DNA from: an uncultured Candidatus Saccharibacteria bacterium
GTDB lineage: Bacteria; Patescibacteriota; Saccharimonadia; Saccharimonadales; JACQNP01
Reading direction: 5' to 3'
DNA length: 64,000 nt
Assembly (NCBI GenBank): GCA_964590725.1
Contig: CAZPWF010000002.1
Location: 38,846 to 102,845, forward strand
The notes beneath the pieces were generated by a model. The model did no database searches, had not been told where the DNA came from, and saw only the letters and a list, made by a program, of their open reading frames with translations. Shown here piece after piece: positions 40,540-58,311 of the stretch (position 1 is its first letter; every line of letters starts with the position of its first letter). The translations under genes were made by a program, and so were the position numbers.

Positions 40540-40624
40540 GGGGATGTGGTGAAATTGGTATACACGCGTGCCTTAGGAGCACGTGCCGCAAGGCGTGAAG
40601 GTTCAAGTCCTTTCATCCCCACCA
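40540..40624 (+). tRNA. tRNA-Leu (anticodon UAG), long variable arm, genomically encoded CCA
   Basis: Acceptor stem GGGGATG/CATCCCC, anticodon stem CGTGC/GCACG with loop CTTAGGA, variable arm GCC-GCAA-GGC, T arm GAAGG-TTCAAGT-CCTTT, discriminator A plus CCA. Confidence 0.85.
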
Positions 40625-44648: not shown

Positions 44649-45239
44649 ATGACAACAAATTCAGTACTAGTCCCAACCGTAATAGAATCAGAAGGCCGCA
44701 TCGAACGTGCTTATGATATATACTCTAGATTACTAAAAGACAGAATAATCTTTCTAGGGACTGACGTTAATGAGCACACAGCAAATCTAATTGTTGCTCA
44801 GCTCCTATTTCTTGATAACGAAGACAGCAAGAAGGACATATATCTTTACATAAACAGCCCGGGTGGTAGTGTTTACGACGCCTTGGCAATTTATGACACA
44901 ATGCAGTACATAAAGAGTGACATACAAACGGTAGGAATAGGTGTGCAGGCGTCAGCAGCAGCATTTTTACTAAGTAGTGGAACTAAAGGTAAACGTTTTA
45001 TACTACCAAATTCTACAGTTATGATTCATCAGCCATCTTCTGGCACTCGTGGCAAGGTTACGGACATGGAAATTGATCTGAAAGAATCGCTCAGGATAAA
45101 GCATCGATTGAATGAAATTATGGCAAAAAATACTGGCCAGACAGTAAAGCGTATCCAAGACGATATGGAAAGAGACTATTGGATGACTGCAGAAGAGGCC
45201 AAAAAATACGGAGTTGTTGACAAAGTTATTGTTAAGTAA
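44649..45239 (+). CDS. clpP: ATP-dependent Clp protease proteolytic subunit
   Basis: RIIFLG, the catalytic Ser context [11 protein letters not shown], His in MIHQPS, and Asp in [25 protein letters not shown] upstream. Confidence 0.95.
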
Positions 45240-45257
45240 ATACAACAATATTCAATT

Positions 45258-45545
45258 ATGGACAACCAAAGTCATTCCACAGAACTAAACTCAGAAGTCG
45301 CTGCCTTATACCTAAAGCGAATAGGTTACATTGAAGCCACTTGGGATAATGTGCTCGAGAATCGAATAGGAAGCCATGCTTTACGAACAATGATTTTGAT
45401 TGGTCAAGGTGACAAAAGAGATGCTGTTGAAATATACAATTATCTGCGCGAAAGCGAAGGCTTAGGCCCAATTGACCCAGAAATAGGTGCACGTATTGTT
45501 GGCTCTGGGATTGACGCCGCAAGGCACCTTAGTCATGAAAATTAA
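45258..45545 (+). CDS. Hypothetical protein (95 aa) in the position where clpX is often found
   Basis: ORF only; no recognisable motif. Confidence 0.35.
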   Translation: MDNQSHSTELNSEVAALYLKRIGYIEATWDNVLENRIGSHALRTMILIGQGDKRDAVEIYNYLRESEGLGPIDPEIGARIVGSGIDAARHLSHEN

Positions 45546-45735
45546 TCATTTATTTGTAAAATATTTGACATTTGCTAATTAGTCGTCCAAACTCTTACAT
45601 TAAGAAGTAGTGTACGTTCGGGCTGTGCTGTATTTTTTTAAGATACGTGTACCAAAAACCCATGTAGTGAGCTTCAATTCTCCAAAAAAAATCATTACAT
45701 CAATTCTAAATAATTTAGTGGGAGCCCATTTATTT

Positions 45736-48700
45736 ATGGCAAAAAGTAGTACGACGCACGCCGCAAAACGAAAATATTTTACAGAAACAGATGACGTGAT
45801 TGATTTACCAAATCTCGTCAATCACCAAAACAAATCATTCCAATGGTTTGTAGAAGAAGGGCTCGGGGAGCTTTTATCAGAGATTAGTCCCATTGATGAT
45901 TACACGGGTACAAAATTAACACTACGTTTTAAAGATTACAGATTCGAGAAACCAAAATTAACTGAGGCAGAAGCCCGAGAAAACAATGTAAGTTATGACG
46001 CGCCGCTAAAGGCAGTAGTTGAGCTAACCAACAAAGTTACGGGTGAGGTTAAAGACCAAGAGATTTACCTTGGTGATTATCCTTGGATGACCGAACGAGG
46101 AACTTTTGTTATTAACGGTGCAGAACGTGTCGTTGTATCTCAATTAATAAGATCTGCCGGTGTTTTCTTTACTGGCGATCTTCATGGTTCGCGTCGATTA
46201 TATGGGGCAAAAGTTATCCCGGGTCGTGGTGCATGGCTAGAATTTGAAACGGCTGCATCTGGTGCGATATTCGTTAAAATTGACCGTAAGAGAAAAATTG
46301 CAGTTACAACATTGCTGCGTGCTCTAGGTGTGACTGATGCTCATATGAGAGATCTATTCAAGCATGTTGATACGGGTAAAGTAAGCTATTTGGACGCAAC
46401 TTTTGACAAAGACCCAACAAAAGGCGCAAACGAATCACTTATTGAAGTATATCGACGTCTTCGACCTGGCGATCTTGCTACTGTAGACAACGCTAGAAGC
46501 TTGCTTGAAAACATGTTCTACAACTTCAAAAGGTTTGATTTTAGTCGCGTTGGACGTTACAAGATAAACAAGAGGCTCAATCTTGATGTAGCTAACACTG
46601 CCGAGAATCGCGTAATGCGACTCGAAGACCTCGTTGCTATCATTGCTGAAATTATTCGATTAAATAATACTCAAGAACCTGCCGACGACATAGACTCTCT
46701 TGCTAATCGTCGAGTGAAACTAGTTGGTGAACTTGTTCAACGTCAGTTCCGAATTGGTCTACTCCGTATGGAACGCAATACAAAAGATCGAATGAGTATG
46801 AGCGAGATTGAGACGGTTACGCCTGCTCAGCTTATTAATGCTCGCCCAATTGTTGCTGCAGTTCGTGAGTTTTTTGCTAGTTCACAGCTTTCACAATTTA
46901 TGGATCAAATCAACCCACTCAGTGAACTTGCTCACAAGCGCCGCTTAAGTTCTATGGGTCCTGGTGGATTAAGTCGAGAACGTGCCGGCTTTGAAGTCCG
47001 TGATGCACACGCTACGCATTACGGTAGGATCTGTGCCGTAGAGACTCCAGAAGGCGCCAACATTGGCTTGGTATTGAACCTAGCGAGTTACGCACGCATA
47101 AATGATTACGGTTTTATTGAGACTCCATATCGGCGCGTTATTAACGCAGTTACTGCAAAAGAAGCTGCTGGTTATACGGCTTTAGTCGATCTAGAAGACG
47201 AAAAAGGAAAAGCTATTGTAAAAGCTGGCGCCAAAATTACTGCTGAGTCAGCAAAAAAATTGGCTGCAGTAAAATCGCAGATAACCTGGCCAGTCAAAGC
47301 TGTTGTTACGAACGAAGTCACTTATCTTGATGCTGCCGCAGAAGAATCTGCGGTTATAGCCAGTGCCGCTGAAGCATACGACGAAAACGGACATTTCATC
47401 CGCGACCGTGTCTCTGCTCGTAGCCACCTTAAGTCAGGTGAAGTTGATGCTGACGAGGTAACACACATGGATGCTTCACGTAAGCAGATTATTGGATCTA
47501 GCGCTGGACTTATACCATTCATTGAAAAGAACTATGTGTATCGCTCATTGATGGGAAGCAACCAGCAACGCCAAGCAGTTCCGCTTATAAAGCCAGATTC
47601 TCCTATTGTAGGAACCGGGCTAGAAGAAGTCACTGCTCGTAACAGTGGTCAGTTAATTGTTGCCGAAGCTGATGGTGAAGTTATTAAGGCTACAGGTTCA
47701 GAAGTTGTCGTGAAGTACAAAGAAGGTAATGTTACATATCAACCTCAGCACTTTGTTCGTAGCAACGAGGGTAGCTCAATCAACCAAAAAGTAGCTGTTA
47801 GCACTGGAGATAAGCTCAAAACTGGCGATCCAATCATCGAAGGTATGTCTATCGCAGGCGGTGAGCTTGCTCTTGGCAAGGATTTGCTTGTCGCATTTAT
47901 GCCTTGGTCTGGCTACAACTTTGAAGATGCAATTATTGTTTCTCGAAAACTTGTAGAAGATGACACACTTACATCCGTTCATATTGTTGATTTCATGGTT
48001 GAAGTTCGTGAAACCAAACTAGGTCCTGAAATTGTTACTCGTGATATTCCAAACGTTGCAGAAGACGCTTTACGGCATCTTGACGATGATGGCATCGTGC
48101 GAATTGGTGCCGAAGTTCATCCTGGAGATATCCTTATTGGAAAAATTACGCCTAAGGGTGAGCAGGAATTAAGTAGTGAAGAGCGCTTGCTTCGTGCAAT
48201 CTTTGGCGAAAAAGCCAAAGAAGTGCGTGATACCTCACAACGCATGCCAAACGGCAAACACGGTAAAGTTGTTGGCGTTAAGGTCTTTTCTCGAGCTAAT
48301 GGGCACGAGCTAAAAGCTGGTGTCATAATGCAGATTCAAGTTTATGTTGCCCAAATGCGTAAGATCGCAGTTGGTGATAAGCTTGGTGGCCGTCATGGTA
48401 ACAAGGGTGTAATCGCTCGAGTACTACCTGTAGAGGATATGCCATTTACAGAAGACGGAACGCCGCTCGATATCATTCTTAACCCTCTCGGTGTGCCGAG
48501 TCGTATGAACATCGGTCAATTGTTTGAAACTCACTTAGGTATGGCTGCGCGAGCGCTTGGTATGAAAGTAGCAAGTCCATCGTTTAACGGCGTGCCTACT
48601 GAAAAGATTGAGGAATTGCTAGTAGAGGCTGGACTGCCAAAAGATGGTAAGCAGCAACTATTTGACGGTCGAACAGGTGAAGCCTTCACTGAACGAACTA

Positions 48701-49290
48701 CCGTCGGTAGTATGTACATGATTAAGCTAAATCACATGATTGCCGATAAGATTCACGCACGTTCGACAGGACCATACACAATGGTTACTCAGCAACCACT
48801 TGGTGGAAAGGCTCAAAATGGCGGTCAGCGATTTGGCGAAATGGAAGTGTGGGCACTTGAAGCATATGGTGCCAGCAACATTTTGCAAGAAATGCTTACC
48901 ATTAAGTCAGATGACGTTTATGGACGATCAAAAGCTTACGAATCTATCATTAAGCAAACAGAAATTGTTGGGCCAAAAGTTCCAGAGAGCTTCAATGTTC
49001 TCGTTAAAGAGCTTCAAGGTCTTGGGCTTAAGGTTGACCTAGTGCGAAGTAACGATGTAATCGATGCAGAAGAAGTTTTAGCCGAGAATATTAAAGATGA
49101 GGCGGCGCATCTATCTGATGTTGAAGTCCCAGCTCCGGTTATCTCTGATGTTGACGTCACAGAGGATGCCGCCCTAGCAGAATTCGACGTAATTGGTTTA
49201 GATGAGTCTGTGGCTGCAACTGTTACAGAAATTGAAGATACAGAAGATATTTTGGTAAACGTTGAAGAAGATGAAAAGGAGACTGCATAA
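45736..49290 (+). CDS. rpoB: DNA-directed RNA polymerase subunit beta, with an 81-aa acidic C-terminal tail
   Basis: Universal beta blocks are present (GTFVINGAERVVVSQL, NPLSELAHKRRLS, GDKLGGRHGNKGV, NGGQRFGEMEVWALEAYGA). I chose the start at MAKSSTT (45736), which has GGGAG upstream; the track start at 45610 is an upstream in-frame artefact. Confidence 0.95.
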   Translation: MAKSSTTHAAKRKYFTETDDVIDLPNLVNHQNKSFQWFVEEGLGELLSEISPIDDYTGTKLTLRFKDYRFEKPKLTEAEARENNVSYDAPLKAVVELTNKVTGEVKDQEIYLGDYPWMTERGTFVINGAERVVVSQLIRSAGVFFTGDLHGSRRLYGAKVIPGRGAWLEFETAASGAIFVKIDRKRKIAVTTLLRALGVTDAHMRDLFKHVDTGKVSYLDATFDKDPTKGANESLIEVYRRLRPGDLATVDNARSLLENMFYNFKRFDFSRVGRYKINKRLNLDVANTAENRVMRLEDLVAIIAEIIRLNNTQEPADDIDSLANRRVKLVGELVQRQFRIGLLRMERNTKDRMSMSEIETVTPAQLINARPIVAAVREFFASSQLSQFMDQINPLSELAHKRRLSSMGPGGLSRERAGFEVRDAHATHYGRICAVETPEGANIGLVLNLASYARINDYGFIETPYRRVINAVTAKEAAGYTALVDLEDEKGKAIVKAGAKITAESAKKLAAVKSQITWPVKAVVTNEVTYLDAAAEESAVIASAAEAYDENGHFIRDRVSARSHLKSGEVDADEVTHMDASRKQIIGSSAGLIPFIEKNYVYRSLMGSNQQRQAVPLIKPDSPIVGTGLEEVTARNSGQLIVAEADGEVIKATGSEVVVKYKEGNVTYQPQHFVRSNEGSSINQKVAVSTGDKLKTGDPIIEGMSIAGGELALGKDLLVAFMPWSGYNFEDAIIVSRKLVEDDTLTSVHIVDFMVEVRETKLGPEIVTRDIPNVAEDALRHLDDDGIVRIGAEVHPGDILIGKITPKGEQELSSEERLLRAIFGEKAKEVRDTSQRMPNGKHGKVVGVKVFSRANGHELKAGVIMQIQVYVAQMRKIAVGDKLGGRHGNKGVIARVLPVEDMPFTEDGTPLDIILNPLGVPSRMNIGQLFETHLGMAARALGMKVASPSFNGVPTEKIEELLVEAGLPKDGKQQLFDGRTGEAFTERTTVGSMYMIKLNHMIADKIHARSTGPYTMVTQQPLGGKAQNGGQRFGEMEVWALEAYGASNILQEMLTIKSDDVYGRSKAYESIIKQTEIVGPKVPESFNVLVKELQGLGLKVDLVRSNDVIDAEEVLAENIKDEAAHLSDVEVPAPVISDVDVTEDAALAEFDVIGLDESVAATVTEIEDTEDILVNVEEDEKETA

Positions 49291-52200: not shown

Positions 52201-53127
52201 ACTCAAGGTCTGCCACGTGTTGAAGAACTCTTTGAAGTTAGAACTCCGAAAGGTCAAGCATTCTTGTCAGATATAGATGGAGTTGTTGCTGCATGGGAAG
52301 AGGGCGATCACTATGTAGTGCAAGTAAGTGCTGACGATAAAGAAAAAGTTAAATACGAGATTAATGGCCGTATCGTTCAGGTGGCCCATGGAACAGAAGT
52401 CGTGATCGGTGATGTATTAGCAGCCGCAGAAGACGATCGAGAACCGTTAATAGCTACAATTGCAGGCAAAGTAGAAGTCAATAAAAAGTCAGTTTCTGTA
52501 GTGCCTACCGGTAAGAGTGTAGTACGTTACGAAATACCTGGATTCAAGCAATTGACCGTTAAAGACGGCGATCTTGTTGAAGCTGGGCAACGACTTACTA
52601 ACGGTTCTATCAATTTGCACGAGCTAATGCGCTTGAAGGGTGTTGAATCAACACAGCGCTATATCATGAACGAAATTCTTCGTATCTTTGCGTCACAAGG
52701 TCAAAATATAGCTGACAAGCACTTAGAAATCATAGTTCGACAGATGTTCAGCCGTGTCCAAATTGAAGATGCAGGTGATACAGAATTCGTAACTGGAGAT
52801 ATAGTCAGTAAGCTTGCTGTAGTTGAAGCGAACGAACAACTTGCTACAGAAGGAAAAACTGTTGCTAAGTTCACTCAACTACTACTTGGTATTACCAAAG
52901 CAAGTCTTTCAACCGATTCGTTCCTAAGTGCTGCTAGTTTCCAAGACACAACTCGAGTACTTATTGCTGCTGCGACCAGCGGTAAAGTTGACAAGCTATA
53001 TGGTCTAAAGGAAAACGTTATCCTTGGAAGACGTATTCCAGTTGGAACTGGCTATAATGCTAGTCATAACATTCCCGAAGATGTCGATGAGGTAGCTGTA
53101 ATAGAAGATGCCGTTGCAGCCGAGTAG
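49291..53127 (+). CDS. rpoC: DNA-directed RNA polymerase subunit beta-prime (cysteines of both zinc sites substituted)
   Basis: The catalytic motif [12 protein letters not shown], the bridge helix and the trigger-loop region ([21 protein letters not shown]) are present. The ATG directly abuts the rpoB TAA. Confidence 0.95.
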   Translation: [1278 protein letters not shown]

Positions 53128-53239
53128 TACTTGCTATTTAGTTAACAAACTGTTAAAGTTAAATTTGTAAAAATAAGTAATCTGAGCCTGGTTTATGGCA
53201 TGAGCCCGATGCAGTAGATTACAGTTCTAAGGAGAACAA

Positions 53240-53653
53240 ATGCCAACAATAAATCAATTGGTGCGTAAACCACGCGTCAAGGTGACTACTAAAAGTAAGT
53301 CGCCAGCTATGCAGCGCGTAGTAAATAACTTGAAAACTAAAAACTATGAAAAATCAGCACCATTTAAGCGTGGTGTATGTGTCAAGGTGACAACCAAGAC
53401 TCCAAAAAAGCCAAACTCCGCACTTCGTAAGGTTGCGCGTGTACGTCTAAGTAATGGCTACGAAGTCTGGGCATACATCGGTGGCGAAGGTCACAACCTT
53501 CAAGAACATGCTGTAGTGTTAGTTCGCGGTGGCCGAGTAAAGGATCTTCCTGGTGTGCGTTATCACATCGTACGCGGAACTTTGGATCTTCAAGGTGTTC
53601 AGAATCGCAAAAGAGGTCGTTCTAAGTACGGCGCCAAGAAAGACAGTAAATAA
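53240..53653 (+). CDS. rpsL: Ribosomal protein uS12
   Basis: [22 protein letters not shown] and [25 protein letters not shown] upstream. Confidence 0.95.
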
Positions 53654-53655
53654 TT

Positions 53656-53865
53656 ATGAGTATTGAATCAAGCGTTACAGAAGCAACACTTTGCGAAGCG
53701 GTTGTTTGTGATAAGTTCAACAATTGGGAGAATCTAACAAAAAAATCTCTCGGCACAACTTCGGGCACCGCTCCTGGCGCAGCTGAGCAAATTGCTACAT
53801 GTAATGCAGTAAGTGGATGTATTTTCGAGCAGATCGTAGAAATTAGAGGAGTTGAAAATGCCTAG
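53656..53865 (+). CDS. Unannotated 69-aa acidic, four-Cys ORF filling the rpsL-rpsG spacer (coding status to be tested)
   Basis: The ATG is 2 nt after the rpsL TAA and the stop lies 8 nt inside rpsG. By hand count, 28 of 69 codons start with G, which is coding-like periodicity. No SD. Confidence 0.4.
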   Translation: MSIESSVTEATLCEAVVCDKFNNWENLTKKSLGTTSGTAPGAAEQIATCNAVSGCIFEQIVEIRGVENA

Positions 53866-54334
53866 GAAAGTTACCAAATCATTAGTACGAGAAGTCCAAC
53901 CCGATCGGCTATACAATAGTATTCAAGTTCAAAAAATGATTAATCGTGTTATGCAGCATGGTAAAAAACAAGTTGCAGAGCGATTGGTTTATGGCGGTAT
54001 GCAAAAAGCAGCCGACAAGCTTAAAGTTCAGAATCCACTGGATGTATTTGAACAAGCATTTGCAAATGTTAAGCCTGCTGTAGAGACTCGTTCACGTCGT
54101 GTCGGAGGCGCTAATTACCAGATTCCTTTTGAGGTTCGTGGCCAACGTCAACAGCACCTTACTACCATGTGGTTTGTCGCTGCGGCTCGTTCACGTAAAG
54201 GCATGAGTATGGAAGACAGATTAGCTTTAGAGCTAGTTGATGCCTATAACAACACTGGCTCTGCTGTAAAGAAAAAAGAAGACACTCACAAGATGGCTGA
54301 AGCTAACCGAGCCTTTGCTCACTTCGCGAGATAG
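53858..54334 (+). CDS. rpsG: Ribosomal protein uS7
   Basis: MPRKV..., VMQHGKKQVAERLVY, and ETRSRRVGGANYQIP. GAGGAG SD upstream. I chose the ATG at 53858 rather than the TTG at 53852. Confidence 0.95.
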   Translation: MPRKVTKSLVREVQPDRLYNSIQVQKMINRVMQHGKKQVAERLVYGGMQKAADKLKVQNPLDVFEQAFANVKPAVETRSRRVGGANYQIPFEVRGQRQQHLTTMWFVAAARSRKGMSMEDRLALELVDAYNNTGSAVKKKEDTHKMAEANRAFAHFAR

Positions 54335-54337
54335 ATC

Positions 54338-54646
54338 ATGGAGCACGCTGCTACTATTTGCCAGAGAAAGTGCTCAGTAGTTTTAGGTCCAGTTAGGGAT
54401 ATCACGGAGCTTCTTGTAGATGGCAAAGATAGCGGAGCAGTTGTTACGACCGACGGACTTAGCGTCACCTCGCAGCCACTCATAGATCGAGGGGACGGTT
54501 CGGAAGGTAACCTAGCATATCTAGATGCTATTCTAAACTGCACAGGACCCGAAGGTCGCAAATTATTTGGGCGACTTCCATGTCAAGCATATGTAAGCGA
54601 GCAGAGTTTGAGCGAAAATATAGTAACTATTAACAGAGGTCAATAA
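54338..54646 (+). CDS. Unannotated 102-aa ORF exactly filling the rpsG-fusA spacer (coding status to be tested)
   Basis: The ATG is 3 nt after the rpsG TAG, and the TAA overlaps the fusA ATG (TAATG). By hand count, G occurs at codon positions 1, 2 and 3 in 39, 26 and 16 of 102 codons. Confidence 0.4.
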   Translation: MEHAATICQRKCSVVLGPVRDITELLVDGKDSGAVVTTDGLSVTSQPLIDRGDGSEGNLAYLDAILNCTGPEGRKLFGRLPCQAYVSEQSLSENIVTINRGQ

Positions 54647-56733
54647 TGGCAACCAAGAAAACACCAATGCAAAAAATTCGAAATATGGGCATTATTGCTC
54701 ATATTGACGCAGGTAAAACAACTACAACCGAAGGTATTCTTTACCGAACCGGGTTAAAGCACAAAATTGGTGCAGTTCACGAAGGTGAGACTACCACTGA
54801 TTGGATGGCTCAGGAGCGCGAAAGAGGAATTACTATTGTCTCGGCTGCTGTAACCTGTTATTGGAAAGATCATCAGATCAACATTATCGATACTCCGGGT
54901 CACATTGACTTCACGGTTGAAGTTGAGCGTTCACTACGTGTTCTTGACGGTGCTTGTGTTGTGTTTGACGGTAAAATGGGTGTCGAGTCCCAGTCAGAAA
55001 CAGTCTGGCGACAAGCAGACAAGTATGGCGTTCCAAGAGTCTGCTTCATTAATAAGATCAACCAAACTGGCGGTGACTTTTACAAATCTCTCGATACAAT
55101 TCACGCACGTCTTACTAAACGCGCATTCCCAATTCACCTACCAATCGGTTTTGAGCAAGCTATAAATGGTGTTGTCGACCTTGTAACAATGAAGGCGTAT
55201 ACCTACAAAGAATTCACCGACAAAGAACTTGTCGAGGGCGAAATCCCAGCTGATATGCTGGATCAGGCCAAGAAATACCGCAGTCTACTTATTGAAAACG
55301 CCGTCGCAGAAGATGAAGCCATGCTAGAAAAGTATTTCGAAGTTGGCGAAGACGGTTTATCGACGGATGAAATAAAACAAGCAATTCGAAGTGCAATTTT
55401 GTCTGGTAATTTCTTTGCTGTTACTGGTGGTGATGGCCGTGGGGTTATTGTTGAAAAAGTTCTAGATATGGTTGTAGATTTCTTGCCAAGTCCAGAAGAT
55501 CGTGGATCTTCATGGGGTACCCATCCAAAGACTGGCGAAGAAATTGAACGCGAACCGAATGAGAGCGCTCCTCTTTCAGGTTTAGCATTTAAGATCACAA
55601 CTGACCCATTTGTTGGAAAATTGGCTTACTACCGTGTTTACTCAGGTAAATTGATGGCTGGGTCGTACGTTTTAAACAGTTCTACAGGTGAAAAAGAAAG
55701 AATTGGCCGTATCGTTCGAATGCAGGCAGATAAGCGTGAGGATGTAACTGAAGTCGGCGCAGGCGATATTGCAGCTATAGTTGGACTTAAAGGCACTACT
55801 ACGGGTCACACTCTATGTGATCCGACCAACCCGATTGTTTTGGAGAGCATTACTTTCCCAGAGCCTCCAGTTTCAATTGCTATTGAACCAAAGACCAAAG
55901 CTGACCAAGAAAAAATGTCGATTGCTATGCAACGACTTGCTGAAGAAGACCCAACCTTTAGGATTAATGTTGATGACGAAACAGGTCAAACGATTATATC
56001 TGGAATGGGCGAACTTCACTTAGAAATAATTGTCGACCGAATGAAGCGAGAATTTGGCGTAGAAGCAAACATCGGCGCGCCTCAAGTTGCCTATCGTGAA
56101 ACAATTCGCAAGGACGCTGTAGAGGCACAAGGTAAATTCATTCGTCAATCAGGTGGTCGTGGTCAATACGGTGACGTTTGGGTACGTCTTAGCCAGAACG
56201 AACAAGGAAAAGGTTTTGAATTTATCAATTCAATCAAAGGCGGTGTCGTTCCAGCTGAATACATTAAGCCAGTTAGCGAGGGCATAAAAGAAGCCATGAA
56301 CAACGGTGTTGTCGCAGGATACCCAGTTGTGGATATAAAGGTTGAGCTTTACGATGGAAGTTATCACGATGTTGACTCAAGTGAAATGGCCTTCAAAGCA
56401 GCCGGTTCGATCGGTTTCAAAGAGGGAATGAAAAAAGCAAATCCAGTTCTTCTAGAGCCTGTCATGAAAGTTGTCGTTGTGACTCCAGAAGAATTCATGG
56501 GTGACGTGATCGGTGATTTGAACAGTAAACGTGGTCGAATCGAATCAATGGAAGATCTTAGTGCGGGCGTAAAGGAAATAACCAGTTTTGTGCCTCTGGG
56601 CGAAATGTTTGGTTATACAACTAATCTAAGAAGTTCTACTCAAGGTCGCGCTAGCAGTAGTATGGAGTTACATCACTACGCTGACGTTCCGACTCATGTT
56701 GCTGAAGCTATCGTTGCAAAAAACTCTAAGTAA
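54646..56733 (+). CDS. fusA: Elongation factor G
   Basis: G1-G4 motifs (AHIDAGKTT, DTPGH, NKIN), and domains II-V are recognisable. Confidence 0.95.
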   Translation: MATKKTPMQKIRNMGIIAHIDAGKTTTTEGILYRTGLKHKIGAVHEGETTTDWMAQERERGITIVSAAVTCYWKDHQINIIDTPGHIDFTVEVERSLRVLDGACVVFDGKMGVESQSETVWRQADKYGVPRVCFINKINQTGGDFYKSLDTIHARLTKRAFPIHLPIGFEQAINGVVDLVTMKAYTYKEFTDKELVEGEIPADMLDQAKKYRSLLIENAVAEDEAMLEKYFEVGEDGLSTDEIKQAIRSAILSGNFFAVTGGDGRGVIVEKVLDMVVDFLPSPEDRGSSWGTHPKTGEEIEREPNESAPLSGLAFKITTDPFVGKLAYYRVYSGKLMAGSYVLNSSTGEKERIGRIVRMQADKREDVTEVGAGDIAAIVGLKGTTTGHTLCDPTNPIVLESITFPEPPVSIAIEPKTKADQEKMSIAMQRLAEEDPTFRINVDDETGQTIISGMGELHLEIIVDRMKREFGVEANIGAPQVAYRETIRKDAVEAQGKFIRQSGGRGQYGDVWVRLSQNEQGKGFEFINSIKGGVVPAEYIKPVSEGIKEAMNNGVVAGYPVVDIKVELYDGSYHDVDSSEMAFKAAGSIGFKEGMKKANPVLLEPVMKVVVVTPEEFMGDVIGDLNSKRGRIESMEDLSAGVKEITSFVPLGEMFGYTTNLRSSTQGRASSSMELHHYADVPTHVAEAIVAKNSK

Positions 56734-56744
56734 TAAGGTTTAAT

Positions 56745-56972
56745 ATGAGAAAAAGAGAGACGATTACCCCAATTGTTAACGCAAATGTGTTACACCCACC
56801 ACAAGAAAATGATATCCACGATATGTTAAATTCCGTTCGTAACATAGCTCGTCTTGCTTTGCACCCCGGAAAAGCCATAAGTGATTTTCTAGGTGACCTT
56901 TCCGTAGCTGCAGGGACAGTTGATGCCGGCTTAGGTTATCAGAATATTGACGACGCAAGTGTCCAAAAGTAG
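56745..56972 (+). CDS. Unannotated 75-aa ORF between fusA and tuf
   Basis: The ATG is 11 nt after the fusA stop, with AAGG 7 nt upstream. By hand count, 28 of 75 codons start with G. Confidence 0.4.
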   Translation: MRKRETITPIVNANVLHPPQENDIHDMLNSVRNIARLALHPGKAISDFLGDLSVAAGTVDAGLGYQNIDDASVQK

Positions 56973-57024
56973 AATCAAGTTTGGGTTGAATTAGATTTTG
57001 TGCTCACAAACTAGTGTATTGGAC

Positions 57025-57053
57025 TTTACAAACACCTTAAGTTTAGATAGAAT
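57025..57053 (+). promoter_or_regulatory. Candidate sigma-70-type promoter for tuf (TTTACA-17 nt-TAGAAT)
   Basis: -35 TTTACA at 57025-57030 and -10 TAGAAT at 57048-57053, giving a ~70-nt 5' UTR that ends in an AGGAG SD. Confidence 0.45.
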
Positions 57054-57129
57054 TTACAAGTAACTCGTGTGAGTGTATTGCTACACTTGCGCAAGAAAGC
57101 TAATAAGATTAATAGGAGTAACAATAGAG

Positions 57130-58311
57130 ATGGCAGATTTTGATCGAAGTAAGCCTCATGTAAACGTCGGTACTATGGGTCATGTGGACCATGGTAAAAC
57201 CACACTAACCGCAGCAATTACGACTGTACTTGCTAAGAAACTACCAAGTGATGTTAACCAGAAGGTTGACTACGCACAGATTGATAATGCTCCAGAAGAA
57301 AAAGCTCGTGGAATAACGATTGCTACTTCTCACCAGGAATATGAATCAGAAAAGCGTCACTATGCTCATGTTGATATGCCAGGTCACGCTGACTATGTTA
57401 AGAACATGATTACGGGTGCTGCCCAAATTGATGGTGCAGTTCTAGTTGTGTCTGCCGCTGATGGTCCTATGCCACAAACCCGCGAACACGTACTACTTGC
57501 TAAGCAAGTTGGTGTTCCAAGTATCTTGGTTTTCATGAACAAGATGGATCTTGCTGATCCAGAACTAGTTGAATTAGTAGAAATGGATATTCGTGAATTG
57601 CTTGCCAAGTACGAGTTTGACGAAAACTGTCCAATTATTAAGGGTTCTGCTACAAAAGCATTAGAAGGTTCCGCATCTGATGAGGACGCAATCATGGAGC
57701 TTGTTAAGGCTATGGATGATTACATCCCAGAGCCAAAGCGTGAGCTTGATAAGCCTTTCCTTATGCCTATCGAAGACGTCTTCTCGATCAAGGGTCGTGG
57801 TACTGTTGCGACAGGTCGTGTTGAACAAGGTATTGTTAAGGTTAACGAAGAAGTTGAAATTGTTGGTATAAAAGATACTGTCAAATCTGTCGTAACTGGC
57901 GTCGAAATGTTCAAGAAGAATCTTGATCAGGGTCAAGCTGGTGATAACGTTGGTATTCTTCTTCGAGGTATCGAGCGTGACGATATTGAGCGCGGTCAAG
58001 TTTTGGCTAAGCCCGGTACGATCACTCCACATACTGAGTTTGATGCAGAAGTTTATATTCTCACCAAAGAAGAAGGTGGACGTCACACTCCATTCTTCAA
58101 AGGCTACAAGCCACAGTTCTACTTCCGTACTACGGACGTAACTGGTGAGGTTGAGCTTCCAGCTGACAAAGAAATGGTTATGCCAGGTGATACTATCACT
58201 TTCAAGGTAAAACTATTAGCTCCAATCGCAATGGAACAAGGTTTACGCTTCGCAATTCGTGAAGGTGGCCGAACCGTTGGTGCTGGCGTTGTTACTAAAA
58301 TTAACAAATAG
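57130..58311 (+). CDS. tuf: Elongation factor Tu
   Basis: [32 protein letters not shown] and NKMD. I chose the start at MADFDRSK (57130) with AGGAG upstream; the track start at 57073 is an artefact. Confidence 0.95.

Follow-up and report, generated by a model that had tools for sequence, protein, structure and literature searches.

The rpsL–rpsG–fusA–tuf cluster is among the most conserved gene arrangements of bacteria. We describe here ORF102, an open reading frame (ORF) filling the spacer between rpsG (ribosomal protein S7) and fusA (elongation factor G, EF-G) in a 64,000-nucleotide stretch of DNA, called the window below, from an uncultured Candidatus Saccharibacteria bacterium (GenBank assembly GCA_964590725.1, contig CAZPWF010000002.1, positions 38,846 to 102,845 of the forward strand). 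Judged from the sequence and its relatives, ORF102 is very probably a genuine protein-coding gene, translationally coupled inside the str operon. The str operon of Escherichia coli is governed by translational coupling and by S7 autoregulation (Saito, Mattheakis and Nomura 1994, as cited in PMC2704228). The likeness to the window lies in the relay of ribosomes from cistron to cistron, with downstream genes depending on the translation of upstream ones. In E. coli, as far as the account given in PMC2704228 goes, S7 binds the untranslated RNA of the rpsL–rpsG spacer, whereas the spacers of the window are predicted to be translated ORFs and are without sign of RNA structure.

FusB and FusC bind EF-G and owe their stability to a zinc site of the CXXC-X23-CX5C type, a non-canonical treble clef (Guo et al. 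2012, PMC3352095). FusB may be the closest functional analogy to ORF102, as an indication of a possible mechanism only. In both, four Cys are arranged as a closely spaced pair followed by a more widely spaced one (C-x3-C...C-x13-C in ORF102), and FusB acts on EF-G, the product of the very gene to which ORF102 would be translationally coupled. However, FusB is about 213 amino acids long, with a four-helix-bundle domain and conserved basic loops, and has 23 residues between its Cys pairs, while the ORF102 product is acidic, has 102 residues, and separates its pairs by 55. ORF102 matched none of the FusB/FusC chains in PDB at E ≤ 10 and had no Pfam match to them either.

Small zinc proteins of the C4 type include the C+ forms of bL31, bL32, bL33, bL36, and uS14, and the Trm112-type zinc knuckles made from N- and C-terminal Cys pairs. 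They share with ORF102 and the other spacer ORFs described below the small size, two Cys pairs, an association with translation genes, and the coexistence of Cys-containing and Cys-free forms; ORF102 itself has the four Cys in two pairs typical of C4 zinc-finger and zinc-ribbon proteins. The spacer ORFs differ in being acidic and not basic, in having a second pair of variable spacing instead of CxxC, and in not being conserved across bacteria, and ORF102 has no sequence match in Pfam, NCBIfam, or PDB to a described zinc-binding family. The ORF102 product may be regarded as a small Cys4 protein whose gene lies among translation genes, set apart by its acidity, hypervariability, and strict positional conservation.

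The str gene cluster of Bacillus also contains a small non-universal gene, ybxF (rplGB), which is without a Cys motif and is conserved across Bacilli, not hypervariable. It differs from ORF102 in lying at the rpoC–rpsL junction and in belonging to PF01248; the faint resemblance to this L7Ae/YbxF type noted in a preliminary description of the window found no support, as ORF102 has no Pfam match at E ≤ 10, PF01248 included. Another family of small genes, the 23S rRNA intervening-sequence/Avd family (PF05635, TIGR02436), is known elsewhere as part of 23S rRNA gene inserts and of diversity-generating retroelements. The likeness is that of small ORFs lodged inside highly expressed genes of the translation apparatus; the difference is that neither ORF102 nor any of 47 further spacer ORFs in the scan matches the family, the one spacer ORF that does being described below.

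Organisation of the rpsG–fusA spacer

The gene order in the window is rpsL–orf69–rpsG–ORF102–fusA, all on the plus strand. The rpsG gene (53858–54334) ends with a TAG stop codon at 54332–54334, followed by three bases, ATC, and by the ATG of ORF102 (54338–54646). The ORF102 stop codon, TAA at 54644–54646, shares its final A with the ATG of fusA (54646–56733), and the 695-amino-acid fusA product taken from the ORF list aligns from residue 1 with EF-G of most relatives. The rpsG–fusA gap is 311 nucleotides long; the sequence and the ORF list agree exactly with the preliminary description in that one ORF fills it and overlaps fusA within TAATG. The gap was also called abnormally long, which is true in comparison with outgroup bacteria (21–90 nucleotides) but not within the order Saccharimonadales, where 200–450 nucleotides are the rule. 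The term "unannotated", which a window of sequence cannot decide, does not suit ORF102: a public protein collection contains the identical protein, taken from an NCBI source, and automatic gene callers thus do predict this ORF.

Recounting confirmed the numbers of G given earlier for the three codon positions of ORF102 (39/26/16) as well as the positions of the Cys residues, 8, 12, 68, and 82. The codons of the first Cys pair, C8-x3-C12, are TGC at 54359–54361 and 54371–54373, so that the pair occupies 54359–54373, and the second pair, C68...C82, is encoded at 54539–54583. The locally raised G+C content reported before is real and mild, 0.50 in 150-nucleotide windows against 0.37–0.47 around. 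For the whole of ORF102 the value is 0.46 versus 0.44 for rpsG and fusA, and at third codon positions it is 0.36, similar to the neighbour genes.

The start of ORF102, 3 nucleotides past the S7 stop codon, has a weak Shine–Dalgarno sequence (duplex of −3.0 kcal/mol with the anti-Shine–Dalgarno sequence). The translation initiation region of fusA (54635–54648) lies within the end of ORF102, with the Shine–Dalgarno sequence AGAGG (54635–54639; duplex of −7.0 kcal/mol) in the last ORF102 codons and TAATG at 54644–54648. The spacer contains no promoter- or terminator-like sites, and ORF102 is not flanked by direct or inverted repeats; ORF102 is therefore placed within the rpsL–rpsG–fusA transcription unit. 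Ribosomes ending S7 would re-initiate on ORF102 and those ending ORF102 would re-initiate on fusA, and synthesis of the ORF102 product would keep pace with that of S7 and EF-G.

Coding status of ORF102

The preliminary description took ORF102 for a real coding ORF in stop/start coupling, and this is upheld by intact syntenic homologs, the pattern of substitutions and their ratio, synonymous polymorphisms, and codon usage. A word-indexed search of 5.8 billion proteins returned, besides the query, a sole relative, P0002, of 102 amino acids and 86% identity. Seven contigs bearing P0002, from Logan and ENA samples, were read (six are shown), and those reaching the flanks have the layout of the window: S7, a 3-nucleotide gap, and the ORF, which overlaps the gene that follows. 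A further homolog, P0005, of 109 amino acids and 41% identity (E = 3e-6), came from an exhaustive HMMER search of 1.84 billion representatives; it is preceded by a cut gene and a 1-nucleotide gap and followed by a 20-nucleotide gap and a cut gene of 590 amino acids. The alignment of the three members has 38 invariant columns, all four Cys among them, and the motif around the second pair reads C68-[ST]-G-P-x-G-(K)R-x-F-G-x-R-x-x-C82. Two other candidates, P0003 (1027 amino acids) and P0004 (728 amino acids), are long tandem-repeat proteins matched in 10–12 short stretches and were rejected as compositional artefacts. A profile search with the three-member alignment gave no new family members among the 5.8 billion proteins or in metagenome and viral contigs.

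ORF102 differs from its counterpart in the relative L001 by 42 nucleotides and by no insertion or deletion. The differences fall on the first, second, and third codon positions in the ratio 6/7/29, and the Nei–Gojobori method gives a nonsynonymous divergence (dN) of 0.078, a synonymous divergence (dS) of 0.449, and a dN/dS of 0.17, so that the ORF, kept intact in two other lineages, is under purifying selection at the protein level. In the relative's six contigs only two polymorphisms were seen, neither of which changes an amino acid. The ORF102 frame is the only stop-free one of six in both the window and L001; the antisense frame sharing its third positions scores similarly, yet has 2–3 stops in both genomes. 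The codon-usage score of ORF102 peaks in frame 0, and an open frame as long as ORF102 occurred in none of 200 shuffles of the gap.

An antisense gene and a readthrough extension of S7 were considered and rejected. The 80-amino-acid ORF at 54319–54561 on the minus strand is broken in L001, and stops interrupt the antisense frame in both genomes. In the window ORF102 shares the frame of rpsG, but elsewhere the start offsets of spacer ORFs fall in all three frames.

No family was recognised for the ORF102 product in the preliminary description, and the searches bear this out: besides the lack of a Pfam match, there is no NCBIfam match at E ≤ 0.1 and no family in PADLOC or PHROGs, and a PDB search with the family profile at E ≤ 10 returned only SufS (E = 0.1), which is taken as chance.

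Spacer ORFs in other Saccharibacteria

A scan of one genome per species with the S7 protein placed the organism of the window in Saccharibacteria, order Saccharimonadales (best S7 identities 85–86%), and the rpsG–fusA gap was measured in about 65 loci. It is 21–90 nucleotides in outgroups, 5–57 in a few Saccharibacteria, and 200–450 in most loci of the window's clade. Gaps of 150–500 nucleotides number 37 distinct ones, nearly all from Saccharimonadales close to the window. In 30 of them a single plus-strand ORF fills the gap, the forward open frame exceeding that of 95% of shuffles. The mean open share of the gap is 89% for the forward strand, compared with 60% for the reverse strand and 50% for shuffled sequence. 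The spacer ORFs code for 55–135 amino acids; they start mostly at −4 to +12 nucleotides relative to the rpsG stop codon, and end anywhere from an overlap with the fusA start to about 30 nucleotides ahead of it. Of 29 spacer ORFs scored for codon usage, 25 do best in frame 0.

None of these other ORFs matched ORF102 in a tblastn search of the relatives' loci, all-against-all phmmer linked only two other pairs (L014/L017 and L012/L016), and no nucleotide similarity was found among the spacers of other species. In hhalign, the ORF102 family showed no significant similarity to the L014 family or to the L042 ORF, the best stretch being 15 residues around the third Cys (E = 0.046). ORF102 is taken as one member of a class defined by position, whose rapid divergence would have made its families mutually unrecognisable. 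L042 is the nearest neighbour of the window in a tree of S7 and EF-G, and its first spacer ORF, whose Cys pair begins with CRKCSVF, resembling CQRKCSVV in ORF102, may be a diverged ortholog, the hhalign similarity (E = 0.046) being confined to the surroundings of the third Cys.

The preliminary description called ORF102 an undescribed element, and this stands as far as literature searches reach: the literature searched had no description of a gene at the rpsG–fusA junction, be it in Saccharibacteria or in other Patescibacteria. The element is lineage-wide in Saccharimonadales and not peculiar to this genome.

Some gaps have other contents. Two consecutive small ORFs are found in the 650–870-nucleotide gaps of L042 (4484–4864 and 4904–5239), L010 (4491–4763 and 4773–5123), and L039 (942–1436 and 1429–1782). 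The spacer ORFs L041:4550–4828 and L023:3443–3850 share a C-terminal stretch (42% identity over 38 amino acids, E = 3e-5) and make up another small family, the L041 gap being partly N-masked. In the Nanosynbacter-like loci L063, L066, L071, L073, L078, L052, L050, and L070 the gaps measure 0.7–3.7 kb and contain whole genes, coding for a YajQ/DUF520 protein (164 amino acids, E = 9e-52), trypsin-like peptidases, and several large orphan ORFs; the trypsin-like peptidase of the L063 gap is an 824-amino-acid protein, and in L078 (Ca. Minimicrobia vallesae) the YajQ-like and peptidase matches are each split or shortened. When 49 spacer ORFs were compared with the family libraries, only that of L027 (4521–4886) was matched, the remainder being at chance level. 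It is a 121-amino-acid gene of the 23S rRNA intervening-sequence/four-helix-bundle (Avd-like) type (Pfam E = 5.6e-35, TIGR02436 E = 5.8e-34) lying in the rpsG–fusA gap, so unrelated small genes can land there.

The rpsL–rpsG junction

A second junction of the operon shows the same pattern. The rpsL and rpsG genes are separated by −1 to +3 nucleotides in most loci, while 15 loci have inserts of 100–320 nucleotides, 13 of which are taken up to 99–100% by one ORF. The window is one of the loci with a long spacer. Its rpsL (53240–53653), the first gene of the str operon, is a 137-amino-acid ORF for ribosomal protein S12 (PF00164 on a relative's copy), whose product is 98% identical to the L001 counterpart. 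The 204-nucleotide spacer that follows is filled by orf69 (53656–53865 in the ORF list; 69 amino acids), which starts 2 nucleotides past the rpsL stop codon and ends 7 nucleotides inside rpsG. It also codes for four Cys in two pairs, C13-x4-C18 and C49-x5-C55. orf69 is a singleton orphan among the 5.8 billion proteins, and BLASTP found no similarity between it and ORF102. L001 is without orf69, and rpsL and rpsG overlap there, whereas the independent Logan contig L087, 99.9% identical over 1040 nucleotides of the region, carries it. An AlphaFold model of orf69 made from the single sequence had a predicted local distance difference test (pLDDT) score of 53 and was unusable.

Shared properties of the spacer ORFs and the predicted product

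The spacer ORFs have two properties in common. The first is acidity: the isoelectric point is 4.8 for ORF102, which is also the median, and it is below 6 in 43 of 49 ORFs. The second is the arrangement of Cys. Their counts are bimodal, with none in 13 ORFs and exactly four in 17, where a binomial model expects 4.5 and 6.1, respectively. Among the 26 ORFs that have at least three Cys, 23 place the first two within 6 residues of each other; the shuffle mean is 7.2 of 26, and none of 5000 shuffles reached 23. The common architecture is C-x2-6-C, usually a long spacer of up to about 70 residues, and a second pair of variable spacing (1–25 residues in most of the ORFs, wider in a few). A four-Cys pattern of the type C-x2-6-C...C-x-C, far from random, is present in about half of the spacer ORFs. 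ORF102, with C-x3-C, 55 residues, and C-x13-C, fits it.

The ORF102 product would be a soluble, acidic protein of 102 residues. The four-Cys pattern most likely represents a tetrahedral metal site, in which the four invariant Cys (C-x3-C...C-x13-C) would hold one metal ion, probably zinc, and this ion would staple the N- and C-terminal parts of the protein together. The product is probably not an rRNA-binding ribosomal protein. Our preferred guess, offered with low confidence, is that it may serve as a dispensable accessory binding a translation component produced along with it, such as EF-G, S7/S12, or the 30S subunit.

Several observations weigh against the view of ORF102 as a coupled, functional member of a class of four-Cys proteins. 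The recognisable ORF102 family has three members, so selection was measured on one informative pair, and the genes flanking P0005 were taken for those of S7 and EF-G from their size and order. No homology is detectable between the families of spacer ORFs, and the apparent single class could therefore represent several independent insertions. The ORF is absent from the clade relatives L007, L025, and L036, with gaps of 5–40 nucleotides, and because such a gene is missing from some relatives inside the clade it cannot be essential. Cys are lacking altogether in about one third of the spacer ORFs. The Cys frequency in spacer ORFs, about 3% versus 0.57% in the long ORFs of the window, is by our own estimate close to that of translated random sequence of the same composition, so that the pattern of Cys counts as evidence and their abundance does not. 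Finally, the AlphaFold model of ORF102, built from 3 sequences, was unusable (pLDDT 38), and the metal site is consequently deduced from the Cys pattern alone.

Alternative explanations

The explanation that survives best besides the preferred one, possible although unlikely, is that ORF102 belongs to an exchangeable cassette of accessory or conflict genes, protecting or modulating, for example, EF-G or the ribosome, and swapped between lineages by recombination in the conserved 3′ end of rpsG and 5′ end of fusA, which would make the junction a hot spot. It arises from an anomaly in synonymous divergence. Between the window and L001 the flanking genes have a dS of 1.4–1.5 or one not computable because of saturation, with 45–54% of third positions differing, whereas in ORF102 28% of third positions differ and dS is three times lower. 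High identity extends beyond ORF102, into the last 48 nucleotides of rpsG (94%, rank 2 of 595 clade pairs) and the first ~23 nucleotides of fusA. Genome pairs of equal flank divergence have spacer ORFs only 26–33% identical, and the window and L001 are not sisters in the low-resolution tree of S7 and EF-G. The gaps holding two ORFs or several kilobases of other genes, and the intervening-sequence/Avd-type gene in one of them, also speak for exchange. On the other side, the identity along ORF102 is uneven (about 95% at the 5′ end, 78% in the middle, and 90% at the 3′ end), the anomaly rests on a single pair, and the tree was built from 281 residues with saturated sites. Furthermore, repeats, a recombinase, and a foreign base composition are all lacking, and viral contigs contain no relatives; scans of Pfam, PADLOC, and PHROGs gave no nuclease or recombinase profile for ORF102, and neither paralogs nor a source sequence for the spacers were found within the window. 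The low dS leaves room for exchange by homologous recombination. On this one pair, the anomaly may reflect either exchange of a cassette after the flanks had diverged or a nucleotide constraint at the two initiation regions that slows synonymous change. The exchange of cassettes is compatible with the preferred reading of ORF102 as a coupled coding gene, to which it adds mobility.

A rather improbable explanation is that of a neutral bridge: DNA lodged between two essential, tightly coupled genes would be tolerated only if ribosomes can read through it, so that an open frame, coupling, and a harmless (acidic, soluble) peptide are selected while the peptide itself has no function. This would account for spacer ORFs that occupy nearly the exact extent of the gap at each of two junctions, are mutually unrecognisable, mostly orphans, and uniformly acidic, and are missing from some close relatives, and for the presence of orf69 in the window and its absence from L001. 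For ORF102, however, the dN/dS of 0.17 and the 6/7/29 distribution of substitutions argue against a functionless peptide, as do the persistence at 41% identity of the four Cys and of the motif C-[ST]-GP-x-G-R-x-FG-x-R-x-x-C, and the recurrence of a four-Cys architecture far from random. The bridge explanation fits the turnover at the level of the class and may describe how spacer ORFs begin, but does not fit the present ORF102.

There is very little room for a structured leader RNA of fusA, responsive to S7 or EF-G, in which the open frame would be incidental, as the preliminary description had also considered. Local hairpins are present in the spacer: of the three named earlier, those at 54513–54530 and 54551–54578 are stems of the minimum free energy structure, and a similar stem-loop lies at about 54464–54496. 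The synonymous sites of ORF102 are, moreover, more conserved than those of the flanks. Nevertheless, the 381 nucleotides at 54300–54680 fold no better than dinucleotide shuffles (−96.8 versus −96.83 ± 5.9 kcal/mol, z = 0.01; 46 of 100 shuffles at least as stable), and RNAalifold assigned the spacer a penalising covariation term of +1.13, with 1 compensatory and 10 broken pairs of 98, in a comparison of two diverged sequences that has low power. The only Rfam match, in the whole window at gathering score and in 53100–57300 at E ≤ 5, is a tRNA at 40540, far from the spacer. An RNA element is also at odds with substitutions that obey the codon pattern, with a protein homolog kept at 41% identity where the nucleotides must be far diverged, and with the absence of nucleotide similarity among the spacers of other species.

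Many small ribosomal proteins contain a zinc ribbon with four Cys, and ribosomal proteins of the size of ORF102 are strongly basic. That ORF102 codes for a ribosomal or L7Ae/YbxF-type RNA-binding protein, possibly replacing missing bL9, bL32, or uL30, is hardly credible: its location in a ribosomal operon, its four Cys, and the lack of bL9 and, usually, of bL32 in Saccharibacteria (PMC9297842) would suit such a role, but the product is acidic like those of most spacer ORFs, has no Pfam or NCBIfam match, PF01248 included, and is hypervariable and dispensable within the clade, being absent from L007, L025, and L036.

Other spacers of the window

Two more spacers of the window contain small Cys-free ORFs. 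The fusA–tuf spacer (56734–57129, plus strand) is about 340–400 nucleotides long depending on the tuf start; the listed GTG start (57073) is probably too early, and the N-terminus judged by eye lies near 57130. An ORF of 75 amino acids at 56745–56972 (plus strand) takes up only two thirds of this spacer; its product, P0007, stands alone as a singleton of the protein collection. Two promoter-like sites, at 56947–56975 and 57025–57053, each with 10 of 12 matches, suggest that tuf has its own promoter. Elsewhere, a 95-amino-acid ORF at 45258–45545 (plus strand), with no Pfam match, fills most of the 370-nucleotide gap between clpP (44649–45239) and rpoB (45610–49290); rpoB/rpoC are preceded by tig–clpP and not by rplJ–rplL.

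Significance of the spacer genes

Taken alone, ORF102 is one orphan small protein among many in genomes of the Candidate Phyla Radiation. The more interesting result is the replicated pattern of coupled, spacer-filling ORFs at two junctions of a hyper-conserved operon. In a large part of one order of the Candidate Phyla Radiation the str junctions are anything but conserved: sequences there have become unrecognisable, and what is kept is the position, the coupling, the acidity, and often the four-Cys pattern. ORF102 and its invariant Cys provide concrete targets for metaproteomics and biochemistry.

A bolder proposal, speculative and decidedly doubtful, is that the two junctions may act as an expression site for hypervariable, small, acidic four-Cys metalloproteins that are exchanged between lineages through recombination in conserved ends of the neighbouring genes and act on EF-G or the ribosome. 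If this were true, a FusB-like protection or modulation of the target would be possible, against toxins or antibiotics met on actinobacterial hosts, and ORF102 would represent a single allele at an arms-race locus that translational coupling ties to a hyper-conserved operon. If the spacer ORFs are instead read-through filler that later gains function, they would offer a natural, replicated series for the study of gene birth in operons under translational coupling. If their products act on the translation machinery, they would be hitherto unknown translation factors specific to a lineage in which several universal proteins are already missing from the ribosome.

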